Shown here: in pieces, positions 47,373 through 56,644 of the stretch
Numbering within the stretch: the stretch's first letter is position 1
Layout of the letters: the number at the start of each line of letters is the position of its first letter
DNA from: Escherichia coli
Lineage (GTDB): Bacteria; Pseudomonadota; Gammaproteobacteria; Enterobacterales; Enterobacteriaceae
Assembly (NCBI RefSeq): GCF_003018115.1
Contig: NZ_CP027457.1
Direction: 5' to 3' (one strand)
Length of the DNA: 64,000 bases
Translations under genes and position numbers: made by a program
The notes under the pieces: model-generated
Database searches by the model: none
Seen by the model: the letters and a program-made list of their open reading frames with translations, nothing else
What the model was told of the DNA's origin: nothing

Positions 47373-48398
47373 TTACGCCAGTTGTACGGACACGAACTCA
47401 TCAGGGTCAGCCAGCAGCATCAGCGGTGCTGACTGAATCATGGTGAACTCACGCGCCGGATCGCCGGTGGTCACCCAGTTTTTCGGGTAACGGGCAGAGG
47501 CGTTAATGCCTTCGCGCTGTGCGTCCGCATCCTGAATGCAGCCATAGGTGCGCAGACCGCGTGCCTGAGTGTTCCCCAGCACCATCGTGTTGTCCGGCAG
47601 GAAGTTCTTTTTGACGCCGTTTTCCACGTACTGTCCGGAATACACGACGATGGCCACATCGCCATACATCCCCTTATAGGACACCGCTTTGCCCAGGTCT
47701 TTCACCGCTGTCTCCAGCTCGGAATGAGAGCCACGACGGGTATCCAGCTTCTCCTTGACGGCTTTGAAGGAACGGAACAGCGCCCAGCCTTTCGGATCGA
47801 ACACGATGATATTCACCACACCGCTGGCGTTCAGCGCGTAGGCTTCGATATCGTCGGTCGGGTCATACGTGGACTTGTCACGCTTGCTCCACTCCGTGCC
47901 GCCGGACTGCGTGATGTTATTCTCCTCACTGCGGCCCATATCCACCTCAACCGGATCGAAGGCTTCACCGGTCATGGTGTATTTGCCCTTAAGCACGGCA
48001 GAAACTGCCTGCATCTCTTCGACCTGAGCAATGGCCAGCTCTTCGTCACGCATGTTCTGCATGATGATGCGACGGCGGCGGTAAGCCGGGTCCGCCAGAT
48101 TCTGCGGATCTTCATCCGGCAGGCGACGCAGGGTCATCTGCGGATTCACTTCATGCTTCGGCTTGACATATCCCGGCGTAAATTCAGAGGTGGAGCCGCC
48201 ACGGGAACGGATAACCTCACCGGAAACAATCGGCGAAACGTACAGCGCCATGTTTACCAGTCCCGGAATTTGTGAGAGATAGACTTTCTCCGTGGTGAAG
48301 GGATAGCTCTCACGGAAAAAGAGACGCAGAAACAGCGGATCAAACTTAAATTTCTGCTCATTTGCCGCCAGCAGTTGGGCGGTTGTGTACATCGACAT
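47373..48398 (-). CDS. E: Major capsid protein E (HK97 fold)
   Basis: 341-aa ORF MSMYTTAQLLAANEQKFKFDPLFLRLFFRESYPF... Confidence 0.95.
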   Translation of the reverse strand: MSMYTTAQLLAANEQKFKFDPLFLRLFFRESYPFTTEKVYLSQIPGLVNMALYVSPIVSGEVIRSRGGSTSEFTPGYVKPKHEVNPQMTLRRLPDEDPQNLADPAYRRRRIIMQNMRDEELAIAQVEEMQAVSAVLKGKYTMTGEAFDPVEVDMGRSEENNITQSGGTEWSKRDKSTYDPTDDIEAYALNASGVVNIIVFDPKGWALFRSFKAVKEKLDTRRGSHSELETAVKDLGKAVSYKGMYGDVAIVVYSGQYVENGVKKNFLPDNTMVLGNTQARGLRTYGCIQDADAQREGINASARYPKNWVTTGDPAREFTMIQSAPLMLLADPDEFVSVQLA

Positions 48399-50116: not shown

Positions 50117-53797
<3,681 letters not shown>

Positions 53798-53823
<26 letters not shown>

Positions 53824-54343
53824 TCAGCAACCCCGGTATCAGTTCATCCAGCGCGGCTGCTTTGTTCATGGCTTTGATGATATCCCGTTTCAGGAAATCA
53901 ACATGTCGGTTTTCCAGTTCCGGAAAACGCCGCTGCACCGACAGGGGGATCCCGTCGAGAATACTGGCAATTTCACCTGCGATCCGCGACAGCACGAAAG
54001 TACAGAATGCGGTTTCCACCACTTCAGCGGAGTCTCTGGCATTTTTCAGCTCCTGTGCGTCGGCCTGCGCACGCGTAAGTCGATGGCGTTCGTACTCAAT
54101 AGTCCCTGGCTGGAGATCTGTCTCGCTGGCCTGCCGCAGTTCTTCAACTTCCCGGCGCAGCTTTTCGTTCTCAATTTCAGCATCCCTTTCGGCATACCAT
54201 CTTATAACGGCGGCAGAGTCATAAAGCACCTCATTACCCTTGCCACCGCCTCGCAGAACGGGCATTCCCTGTTCCTGCCAGTTCTGAATGGTACGGATAC
54301 TCGCACCGAAAATGTCAGCCAGCTGCTTTTTGTTGACTTCCAT
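53798..54343 (-). CDS. nu1: Terminase small subunit Nu1
   Basis: 181-aa ORF MEVNKKQLADIFGASIRTIQNWQEQGMPVLRGGGKG... with winged HTH. Confidence 0.95.
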
Positions 54344-54359
54344 TGTTCATTCCACGGCC

Positions 54360-54560
54360 AAAAACAGAGAAAGGAAACGACAGAGGCCCAAAAGCTCGTT
54401 TTCAGCACCTGTCGTTTCCTTTCTTTTCAGGGGGTATTTTAAATAAAAACATTAAGTTACGACGAAGAAGAACGGAAATGCCTTAAACCGGAAAATTTTC
54501 ATAAATAGCGAAAACCCGCGAGGTCGCCGCCCCGTAACCTGTCGGATCGCCGGAAAGGAC
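54360..54560 (-). other. cos: cos packaging site (cosB, cosN, cosQ); cosN 12-nt cohesive-end sequence at 54521-54532
   Basis: Plus strand reads ...CGCGAGGTCGCCGCCCCGTAACCTGTCGGATC...; reverse complement GGGCGGCGACCT is the lambda cohesive end, flanked by lambda-like left- and right-end sequence and CGTTTCC-type Nu1 sites. Confidence 0.85.
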
Positions 54561-54731
54561 CCGCAAAATGATAATAATTATCATCTGCATGTCACAACGT
54601 GCATCTACGCCATCAAACCACGTCAAATAATCAATTATGACGCAGGTATCATATTAATTGATCTGCATCAACTTAACGTAAAAACAACTTCAGACAATAC
54701 AAATCAGCGACACTGAATACGGGGCAACCTC

Positions 54732-54965
54732 ATGTCAACGAAGAACAGAACCCGCAGAACAACAACCCGCAACATCCGCTTTCCTAACCAAATGATTGAA
54801 CAAATTAACATCGCTCTTGAGCAAAAAGGGTCCGGGAATTTCTCAGCCTGGGTCATTGAAGCCTGCCGCCGGAGACTGTGCTCAGAAAAAAGAGTTTCTT
54901 CTGAAGCAAACAAAGAAAAGAGTGACATTACTGAATTGCTCAGAAAACAGGTCAGACCAGATTGA
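54732..54965 (+). CDS. ynfO: Small basic prophage protein YnfO (YlcI-like)
   Basis: 77-aa ORF MSTKNRTRRTTTRNIRFPNQMIEQINIALEQKG...; position between cos and ydfO. Confidence 0.7.
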   Translation: MSTKNRTRRTTTRNIRFPNQMIEQINIALEQKGSGNFSAWVIEACRRRLCSEKRVSSEANKEKSDITELLRKQVRPD

Positions 54966-55022
54966 AGCAATTTAGATAATCGTGCAGACTACGCCCCCTC
55001 ATATCACATGGAAGGTTTATCT

Positions 55023-55433
55023 ATGGATCAGGTAGTCATTTTTAAACAAATATTTGATAAAGTTCGAAACGATTTAAACTATCAATGGTTTTATTCTGAG
55101 CTAAAACGTCACAATGTCTCACATTACATTTACTATTTAGCCACAGAGAATGTTCATATTGTATTAAAAAATGATAATACAGTGTTATTAAAGGGCCTAA
55201 AAAACATTGTGTCTGTCAAATTTTCAAAGGATAGGCATCTTATAGAAACGACCTCTAATAAGCTGAAATCCAGAGAGATCACATTTCAGGAATACAGAAG
55301 AAACCTTGCTAAAGCAGGAGTTTTTCGGTGGGTTACAAATATCCACGAACAAAAAAGATATTACTATACCTTTGATAATTCATTACTATTTACTGAAAGC
55401 ATCCAGAAAACTACACAGATCTTACCACGCTAA
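55023..55433 (+). CDS. ydfO: DUF1398-family prophage protein YdfO (YbcV-like)
   Basis: 136 aa from ATG at 55023 (GAAGG RBS); an upstream in-frame ATG at 55008 has a poor RBS. Confidence 0.7.
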
Positions 55434-55584
55434 ACCATAACGTCCGGCTTCTCTCACTCCTGAGCCGGACTGCATTGGTTTAATAAAAACCATCAACAAT
55501 TGTGATTTAGATATTCGGAACCATTCAAATATAACAAAACCCCGTAAAAACGAGGTTTATGGATAAATTTTATTATTGAATACA

Positions 55585-55758
55585 TCAGATTAAATTAATC
55601 TTGACATCATAGCTTTCAAGACCCGTCATTTTTTCCCGTGCGGTAAACTGAATACTGGTAACTTCTTTCCCGGTCTTTTTCTTAAGTTCAATAATTTTTT
55701 TTGTTATATATTCAGAAATATCTGCTTCTGCTTTTGTTTTTAAGTTTTCAATATTCAT
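55585..55758 (-). CDS. gnsB: GnsB (GnsA/GnsB family), 57 aa
   Basis: Minus-strand translation MNIENLKTKAEADISEYITKKIIELKKKTGKEVTSIQFTAREKMTGLESYDVKINLI; below ORF-track cutoff. Confidence 0.8.
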   Translation of the reverse strand: MNIENLKTKAEADISEYITKKIIELKKKTGKEVTSIQFTAREKMTGLESYDVKINLI

Positions 55759-55929
55759 CATTTCCTCTTTTAGTCTGTTATGACTTTCCAGTTACACAGT
55801 AAGTCGATTATATGGTGCAAACGTGTAAAAGATAAGATGAAACATCGCAATAATCAACATACGATAGTCTAAATTTTACACAAACAGACAAAGAGAATTT
55901 TCCTGAATTATCAATGCAATAGCATCAAA

Positions 55930-56160
55930 TCAACTCAAGAGCCTTATTGCTGCTTCCAGAATTTCTTCTGAAGTAACATGTCGATCCGCGGCTACATAAA
56001 TGACTTTATGATCTCCGGTCAGAGATGGAAACCCTGCGGCCATTACAGTAAGGTGTGTTTTTTCGCCATTTGGATATTCACGCATGATGGTGTTAACTCC
56101 AGTCATCGCTGGCACTACCACTGCTGGTTCAGAGTTAAAAAAAACTATGATTTTTTTCAT
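55930..56160 (-). CDS. Small prophage protein (possibly ynfN-like); start uncertain
   Basis: ORF MKKIIVFFNSEPAVVVPAMTGVNTIMREYPNGEKTHLTVMAAGFPSLTGDHKVIYVAADRHVTSEEILEAAIRLLS; a 51-aa version would start at MREYP (56085). Confidence 0.45.
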   Translation of the reverse strand: MKKIIVFFNSEPAVVVPAMTGVNTIMREYPNGEKTHLTVMAAGFPSLTGDHKVIYVAADRHVTSEEILEAAIRLLS

Positions 56161-56431
56161 GATGTTACCGTAGTATGTGAGTATCCATCGAATAGACACC
56201 AAGCAAAAAAGCTCCCGAAGGAGCCTTCATTTTCACTTTTTTAAATCCAACGACAGACGGCTGGCATTTAAGTATTGTGAAATATTATCAAATGTAATCA
56301 TCATTGATTTACAAAAGATACATTTTGCCCCGAAAGGATTCATGTCAGAAACATCAAAAGATGATGTTCTATACTGGGAACCATGACAACACGGGCATCT
56401 AAAGTGAATATGGTTTGTAATATTGTCTACC

Positions 56432-56644
56432 TCAAAGCGCCACTACATGAACAGCGGCAGGACCTTTAGGTCCGTTCTCAATACCAAATTCAACTTCCTG
56501 ATTCTCAGTTAATGTTTTGAAATCGTTGCTCTGAATTGCTGAGAAATGGACAAACACATCTTTGCTGCCATCTTTCGGCGTGATGAAACCAAAACCTTTT
56601 TCAGGGTTAAACCATTTCACTAAACCAGTCATTTTGTTAGACAT
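56432..56644 (-). CDS. cspI: Cold-shock protein (CspA family)
   Basis: 70-aa [41 protein letters not shown]... with RNP1/RNP2 motifs. Confidence 0.85.

Follow-up and report, generated by a model that had tools for sequence, protein, structure and literature searches.

Two small genes, ynfO and ydfO, lie side by side next to the packaging site cos of a lambda-type prophage in the 64,000-nucleotide stretch of Escherichia coli DNA analysed here (the window; NCBI RefSeq assembly GCF_003018115.1, contig NZ_CP027457.1), and they raise the question of whether so close a pair works as a single interdependent module. A first-pass annotation had described a small basic protein and a DUF1398 protein, co-oriented and tightly linked in a moron position abutting cos, and had taken their conserved pairing to point to a toxin–antitoxin or exclusion module. 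The description was borne out: ynfO (54732–54965, plus strand; 77 amino acids, isoelectric point (pI) 10.6) and ydfO (55023–55433, plus strand; 136 amino acids, pI 9.75) are separated by 57 bp, and ynfO starts 199 bp from cosN (54521–54532). The functional suggestion was not supported, as each kind of gene is frequently found without the other; the YdfO fold and a comparison with defence families also speak against it. We consider it probable that ynfO and ydfO are accessory genes (morons) that lie next to each other under separate control, and that they do not form an interdependent two-component system.

Both are ordinary prophage accessory genes that have already been catalogued; RefSeq labels on identical DNA read ynfO, ydfO and gnsB. 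YnfO belongs to the YlcI/YnfO family (DUF3950) and passes the cut-offs of PF13132 (DUF3950; 75.6 bits versus 25, E = 2.7e-21) and of the NCBIfam model NF041551 (YlcI_YnfO_N; 36.6 versus 30). YdfO passes the cut-off of the hidden Markov model (HMM) for DUF1398 (PF07166, E = 1.7e-46) and is identical at 135 of 136 residues to K-12 YdfO, whose structure has been solved by nuclear magnetic resonance (NMR; PDB 2HH8) and whose fold it shares. The ydfO start at ATG 55023 has a GGAAGG Shine-Dalgarno sequence 7 nt upstream, in agreement with the RefSeq call; translation probably does not begin at an in-frame ATG at 55008. Both genes are on the 2024 y-ome list, and no function for DUF1398 or DUF3950 was found in the literature searched, consistent with the earlier statement that they are uncharacterised. 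A 1.2-kb region spanning the locus was matched in 4839 of 5426 complete E. coli genomes, with at least 80% of it covered in 2631, so the arrangement is no chance feature.

The pairing of YnfO-like and DUF1398 genes is one-directional

Loci came from three sources (IMG/VR, a set with one genome per species, and metagenome representatives) and were scanned by tblastn and with HMMs built from our own alignments. The locus samples consist of the best 80 matches per query and are hence biased; the direction of the result was nevertheless unambiguous. YnfO-like proteins carry unrelated tails past residue 50 in the different types of locus, and we refer to these as Qin-type, lambda-type (with a tail of approximately 15 residues) and Stx-type, the last from Shiga toxin (Stx) phages.

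Viewed from DUF1398, linkage within phages was complete. A co-oriented YnfO-like open reading frame (ORF) lay upstream of all 72 phage-type DUF1398 genes that had enough upstream sequence, with a gap of about 57 bp in 56 of these and about 690 bp in 16, and the same was true of the five phage-type genes found in the species genomes (5/5). Viewed from YnfO, the outcome depended on the type of locus. Qin-tail YnfO was followed by DUF1398 in 80/80 loci. Among 72 loci encoding lambda-tail YlcI, 40 had ybcW and DUF1398, 28 had bor directly downstream and four were arranged otherwise, such that 32 (44%) were without DUF1398. Stx-type loci, which adjoin an HNH-TerS-TerL packaging module and not Nu1/A, had DUF1398 in none of 74. 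Across phage records, tblastn detected YnfO-like ORFs in 152 and DUF1398 in 43, with at least 109 of the 152 carrying DUF3950 without DUF1398. More distant DUF1398 genes (25–49% identity; from Citrobacter, Kluyvera, Pseudocitrobacter, Salmonella diarizonae and the Escherichia ycgX type) had varied neighbours, and no YnfO-like ORF was present within 3 kb of any of the 24. Separate occurrence, which the first-pass annotation had named as the outcome that would count against a paired module, is therefore frequent. The ynfO–ydfO pairing is one-directional and confined to lambda- and Qin-type prophages; because the cargo varies by locus type, the YnfO-like gene is best read as what stays constant where the lysis and packaging modules meet, with DUF1398 as one of several optional cargoes.

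Natural deletions also separate the two genes. In four E. coli genomes (GCA_002207685.1, GCA_001911925.1, GCA_002207745.1 and GCA_002207445.1) ynfO is cut at codon 17 and fused to a gpK-like NlpC/P60 tail gene. These derivatives have lost the ynfO promoter region, its FNR box (described below), cos, terminase and the head and tail genes, and have kept an intact 136-amino-acid DUF1398 gene, bor and the lysis genes.

In Kluyvera-type genomes we observed a conserved divergent ORF of 74 amino acids (MLEGYFDLD...SGIRSQMDLRNVSQEVA), unrelated to YnfO, approximately 170–500 nt upstream of the distant DUF1398 gene.

ydfO as a cassette with putative control DNA of its own

The ydfO coding sequence is preceded by a block of about 75 nt (54949–55022, plus strand) that comprises a TTGAAG-N17-CAGACT element, a GATAAT element and the GGAAGG Shine-Dalgarno sequence. 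At its beginning lies GGTCAGACC (54950–54958), the palindromic core of a PdhR-type box, AAACAGGTCAGACCAGAT (54946–54962, plus strand), which overlaps the final ynfO codons. The position of this box is kept across DUF1398 genes. The site listed for ynfO>ydfO in a genomic SELEX-chip (systematic evolution of ligands by exponential enrichment) study of PdhR is identical to the box in the window; in the same study the ybcV site lies at the homologous position, and ybcV mRNA drops 10-fold in a pdhR mutant (PMC7660256).

The boundaries of the cassette could be read from two comparisons. Against the solitary ycgX-type DUF1398 genes, the upstream block has 60–66% identity, similar to the coding sequence (61–62%), and the flanks fall to a background of 43–51%. 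Against lambda, homology restarts at the same boundary as the upstream block and runs on through a stable nested hairpin that follows the ydfO stop codon (55431–55482, plus strand; minimum free energy −21.9 kcal/mol, z = −7.1 versus shuffled sequences). This hairpin lacks a canonical T-run and is probably a 3′ end or a stabiliser. The ycgX-type genes, found in Escherichia and Citrobacter, are family members of ydfO (43–49% identity) and share its upstream block, but are chromosomal, have no YnfO-like neighbour and lie away from cos; homology of ycgX with ydfO and ybcV has been noted before (PMC3509220). Base composition sets the gene apart as well, its G+C content being 31.6% compared with 49–53% for the N-terminal domain of ynfO (49%) and Nu1.

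An RNA element in the ydfO leader was considered and rejected, as RNAalifold showed neither structure nor covariation in the conserved leader; the upstream conservation is for that reason best read as promoter or operator DNA. An Rfam scan of 54300–56000 returned only spurious sub-threshold microRNA matches.

The end of ynfO itself reaches into this block. A 54-bp junction (54895–54948), typical of Qin, replaces a 613-bp segment of lambda and DLP12 that contains ybcW, and encodes most of the variable YnfO tail; the last five ynfO codons and the stop codon fall inside the ydfO upstream block. As junction and ydfO control DNA encode it, the Qin-type tail looks like a fusion by-product and not a dedicated domain. 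Direct repeats of 14 nt, TGCTCAGAAAA(A/C)AG, bracket the junction (TGCTCAGAAAAAAG at 54879–54892 and TGCTCAGAAAACAG at 54937–54950), suggesting that the tight spacing of ynfO and ydfO originated in a microhomology-mediated rearrangement.

ynfO has a separate candidate control site

A perfect FNR-type box (TTGAT-N4-ATCAA; TTGATCTGCATCAA, 54658–54671, plus strand) starts 74 nt upstream of the ynfO ATG and is a candidate control site for a ynfO promoter. It is the sole match in the window, where 0.15 would be expected, and it is retained in 141 of 143 lambda- and Qin-type loci with substitutions confined to the N4 spacer. In K-12, FNR chromatin immunoprecipitation on microarrays (ChIP-chip) placed peaks bearing the identical sequence at nohB and nohA/ydfO, in work that predates the annotation of ylcI and ynfO (PMC1802558). 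RNA sequencing of K-12 has detected ylcI transcripts that overlap the convergent ybcW (PMC12288877).

In Stx-type loci, 41 bp separate the ylcI-like gene from an HNH endonuclease gene that diverges from it, and in 77 of 78 cases a TTGAT half-site is located 76 nt ahead of the ATG, near the position of the full lambda-type box despite unrelated surrounding sequence.

Position of the genes in the prophage and in related elements

The prophage lies on the minus strand of the window and is a fuller version of the element that occupies the Qin site; over 20 kb it is 100% identical to several E. coli chromosomes with full sets of head, tail and terminase genes. Nu1 (53798–54343) and terminase A (51898–53823) are both on the minus strand, so ynfO and ydfO are antisense to the late operon. 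The 12-nt cohesive end of cosN reads AGGTCGCCGCCC, the reverse complement of lambda GGGCGGCGACCT, and is flanked by cosQ, cosB and Nu1. Positions 54533–54894 align at 95% with lambda 48502–48141, 54533 corresponding to the last base (right end) of lambda, and the two genes take up the place held by bor in lambda, with the lysis genes on one side and cos on the other.

The K-12 Qin genes ynfO (b4533) and ydfO (b1549) are essentially the same genes in the same order, nohA-cos-ynfO-ydfO-gnsB; Qin is, however, truncated after nohA, whereas the prophage in the window retains full-length terminase A and head and tail genes. The right ends of lambda and DLP12 (ylcI, ybcW/p79, ybcV/p78, bor) resemble the window in their adjacency to cos, antisense orientation and FNR- and PdhR-type boxes; the first 49 YnfO residues are identical and YdfO is 79% identical. 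They differ in an additional 613 bp that carry ybcW/p79 in the opposite orientation, in having bor downstream and in a shorter, different YlcI tail. The parallel that the first-pass annotation had drawn with ylcI–ybcV of a cryptic prophage was thus sound as regards homologous arrangement, which extends to lambda, but the two genes are not tightly linked there: the K-12 DLP12 layout is nohD, ylcI, ybcW, ybcV, borD, with ybcW intervening on the opposite strand and a gap of 656 bp between ylcI and ybcV (approximately 690 bp in lambda). The lambda DUF1398 gene is lambdap78. Lambda also has a 64-codon ORF of the YlcI/YnfO family (complement of 48109–48303), 200 bp from its right end, which is unannotated in NC_001416/J02459; the same ORF is annotated as ylcI in DLP12 and in some lambda-like phage records.

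These features fit the designation of the locus as a moron-type accessory region. The insert lies between modules and is variably present, as the cargo downstream of ynfO-like genes differs, and lambda p78 is non-essential according to CRISPR interference (CRISPRi) and earlier work (PMC10695390); ydfO also has a distinct base composition and signals of its own in its upstream block and 3′ hairpin. In their insertion between modules, low G+C content, own control signals, dispensability for lytic growth and lysogen-compatible orientation, ynfO and ydfO resemble the lambda morons bor and lom. The bor and lom products are outer-membrane proteins with known phenotypes, whereas inspection by eye revealed no signal peptide or membrane segment in YnfO or YdfO. 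Judged by its antisense orientation, and indirectly by the K-12 data on ylcI, ybcW and ydfO transcripts, the locus may be expressed from a repressed prophage.

On the minus strand between ynfO and cos (54568–54595) there is a sigma-70-like site (GTGACA-16-TATCAT, 10/12) facing cos and Nu1. Its −10 element overlaps a perfect palindrome, ATGATAAT-A-ATTATCAT (54568–54584), just past a cosQ-like GGGTCCT, and judged by its sequence the site may act as an operator or a promoter where the packaging genes begin.

YnfO carries a predicted DNA-binding domain

Selection on ynfO acts on the protein. Over the first 50 codons the window gene and its Stx-type homologue in phage JLK-2012 differ at 22 nucleotides in codons that remain synonymous and at eight in codons that do not, so the near-invariant N-terminal domain is held by purifying selection on the protein and not as a DNA site. 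Homologues with 40–45% identity on Klebsiella and Citrobacter plasmids retain an IRFP...FSAWV motif, and in one case this is fused to a larger C-terminal region. A further match of 41% identity in phage vB_KppS-Ant was dropped because it is antisense within a larger annotated gene.

Residues 1–50 look like a basic arm (codons 1–11) followed by a ribbon-helix-helix (RHH) domain of the Arc/Mnt type. The predicted core (codons 12–50; 54765–54881, plus strand) would consist of a strand (TRNIRFP), helix A, a G-x-x turn and helix B. The N-I-R-F-P of YnfO matches the strand signatures of the P22 repressors Arc (N-L-R-W-P) and Mnt (N-F-R-M-P), and in YnfO as in Arc and Mnt there are 15 residues from the proline to the turn glycine, followed by a serine that opens helix B. 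All three are small and phage-encoded, with a beta-alpha-alpha topology predicted for YnfO; YnfO differs from Arc and Mnt in its longer basic N-terminal arm and in its variable tail. Alignment of YnfO with Arc and Mnt by hhalign gave E = 0.13, or 0.0049 with a broader profile, and matched the Arc/Mnt register at a probability of only 7% or less, such that homology is not statistically secure; in Pfam YnfO matched DUF3950 only. An AlphaFold2 monomer model (mean predicted local distance difference test (pLDDT) score 66) has an extended basic N-terminus, helices at residues 19–32 and 34–54 and a low-confidence tail helix. When this model was compared with the PDB by Foldseek, the top matches were TCP domains (ribbon and helix-loop-helix), and were non-significant. 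Searches of the PDB with the single sequence and two profiles yielded no RHH match. Taking the model and the motif together, we think it reasonably probable that the N-terminal domain of YnfO is an RHH-type DNA-binding domain. No convincing operator motif or palindrome common to the flanks of lambda-type and Stx-type ynfO was found.

The same PDB searches showed a local likeness of YnfO residues 12–27 (TRNIRFPNQMIEQINI; 54765–54812) to sigma-70 region 2.4/3.0 (ARTIRIPVHMIETINK), the reader of the extended −10 element; at E of approximately 0.5–1.2 this is non-significant and may be coincidence.

YdfO has an orphan fold

The YdfO structure contains an internal duplication of an alpha-alpha-beta-beta-beta unit and is an orphan fold. 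Conserved positions in the protein include Y35, T41, N43, G99 and Y114. Structure comparison showed no likeness to any known toxin fold (RelE/ParE, MazF/CcdB, PIN, HEPN, Doc/Fic, GNAT and others). The labels 'head protein' (PHROG 413 and RefSeq phage records) and 'putative envelope protein' (GenBank) attached to DUF1398 were rejected, since the gene is not part of the head module, runs on the opposite strand, and its product shows no signal peptide or membrane segment by eye.

Published work records changes in ydfO expression: its mRNA is strongly increased under imidazolium ionic liquid (PMC4077768) and also changes upon over-expression of DicC. The statement that YdfO over-expression raises oxidative-stress resistance (PMC4077768) was rejected, as the study it cites (Wang 2010; PMC3105296) names YfdK, YfdO and YfdS of CPS-53 and no ydf genes; it is probably a mix-up of the gene names YdfO and YfdO, and should not be propagated.

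Functional interpretation

In the explanation that we favour, ynfO and ydfO sit between the lysis genes and cos, run antisense to the late operon and are under separate control. YnfO would most likely bind DNA as a small dimeric regulator; a promoter with a perfect FNR box would drive its synthesis in the lysogen and tie it to anaerobic conditions. In lambda, DLP12, Qin and Stx phages a ynfO-like gene is the constant resident of the border that separates lysis from packaging genes, followed by nothing, by bor, by ybcW, DUF1398 and bor, or by DUF1398 directly; in Qin the C-terminal tail is read from the recombination junction and the ydfO control region. ydfO is a self-contained low-G+C cassette, with control DNA containing a PdhR-type box, coding sequence and 3′ hairpin, in a form common to the ycgX-type genes. 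Its product appears to be a cytoplasmic, basic, non-enzymatic-looking, pseudo-dimeric alpha/beta protein, which most likely works by binding or as an adaptor, adjusting host physiology upon signals from central metabolism. The layout of the locus, the co-occurrence counts, the limits of the cassette, the conservation of the two boxes, purifying selection on ynfO and the YdfO fold were observed directly; we infer DNA binding by YnfO, control by FNR and PdhR at this locus, expression in the lysogen and a physiological role.

Several points weigh against this explanation. A YnfO-like gene is always present upstream of phage-type DUF1398, and Qin-type YnfO always has DUF1398 downstream, so that some functional coupling within lambda- and Qin-type prophages, such as regulation of ydfO by YnfO, keeps a small share of the probability. 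A scan for consensus sigma-70 promoters found none on the plus strand. The K-12 FNR ChIP (PMC1802558) and PdhR SELEX (PMC7660256) data demonstrate for ynfO and ydfO binding and not regulation, and both are uncharacterised proteins as regards biochemical role.

The coupling just mentioned would make YnfO the controller of the adjacent DUF1398 gene, for example via the GGTCAGACC box or its own promoter, in a functional but non-toxic module. We regard this as unlikely, and grant it what weight it has because the one-way linkage is perfect within lambda/Qin-type prophages: every phage-type DUF1398 gene examined has its co-oriented YnfO-like gene, YnfO is modelled with an RHH-like fold, and the ynfO ORF terminates inside the ydfO control block. 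Against it, a near-identical YnfO domain occurs without DUF1398 in Stx phages and in the 44% of lambda-type loci noted above, ycgX-type genes hold the same upstream block without YnfO, and no operator-like motif is common to lambda-type and Stx-type flanks. Tentatively, and with about the same low probability, the unannotated YlcI/YnfO gene of lambda may be an FNR-induced RHH regulator with a role for the phage itself at the lysis/packaging boundary. It would then tune terminase or cos activity or read-through of packaging genes, or anaerobically switch on cargo such as DUF1398 and bor in the gut, and this would explain its fixed position across packaging modules of both lambda type (Nu1/A) and HK97 type (HNH-TerS-TerL).

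The modules proposed by the first-pass annotation fare less well. That the genes form a superinfection-exclusion or anti-phage defence cassette carried by the prophage would suit their position antisense to late genes, where expression in the lysogen is likely, the presence of the lysogenic-conversion gene bor in the same slot of relatives and the wide distribution of the genes in prophages. We nevertheless hold it to be very unlikely: no family in PADLOC-DB 2.0 matches YnfO or YdfO at E ≤ 1, several genera carry DUF1398 relatives as ordinary chromosomal genes preceded by the same control block, FNR and PdhR, the predicted regulators, answer to metabolism and not to infection, and no defence phenotype is reported in the literature searched. 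The idea of a type II toxin–antitoxin system, in which YnfO would be an RHH antitoxin with a neutralising C-terminal tail and YdfO the toxin, meets several objections and is in our judgement highly improbable. The partners separate in both directions and are thus not obligately co-inherited. To judge from the sequence they do not form a bicistronic operon with a single promoter, as 656–690 bp and an opposing gene intervene in DLP12 and lambda and ydfO has its own upstream block. The tail that should neutralise the toxin is some 15 residues in the lambda type, whether DUF1398 is there or not, and is partly encoded by junction and promoter DNA in Qin; RHH antitoxins such as ParD, mycobacterial MazE and TacA, by contrast, have an obligate downstream partner and a tail that is neither so short nor so variable, and their neighbour is toxin-like. 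YdfO matches no known toxin fold and appears to be tolerated alone, given that it was produced by itself for the 2HH8 structure; in the four deletion derivatives, likewise, ydfO is intact although the ynfO ahead of it is cut at codon 17 and has no promoter, and lambda p78 is dispensable.

On the explanation of two separately controlled morons, a plausible-looking toxin–antitoxin or exclusion candidate present in about half of E. coli genomes can be set aside. Two y-ome genes and their lambda copies instead appear wired to host regulators, ynfO/ylcI to FNR and ydfO/ybcV to PdhR, which suggests anaerobiosis and pyruvate availability as conditions in which to search for phenotypes. A probable RHH DNA-binding domain provides the uncharacterised DUF3950 family with a testable activity, and the unannotated lambda ORF beside cos is a further lead. 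The boundaries of the DUF1398 cassette show morons moving together with their control regions.

Other observations

Between ydfO and the Rz gene (55585–56644, minus strand) the prophage carries further morons, namely gnsB (Pfam 'GnsA/GnsB toxin'), a ynfN-like ORF and cspI, which encodes a cold-shock domain protein; small accessory genes related to stress are stacked in this slot.

Lambda-type YlcI and DUF1398 (p78) genes, almost identical to one another, were also present on hundreds of contigs of approximately 3.5 kb, and on small 'plasmids' assigned to S. aureus, Xanthomonas, Acinetobacter, Stenotrophomonas, Bacillus and even a spider (contigs and plasmids together spanning approximately 3.35–3.6 kb). 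Contamination by the lambda amplicon that serves as a control in nanopore sequencing is the most likely source, and not real hosts.

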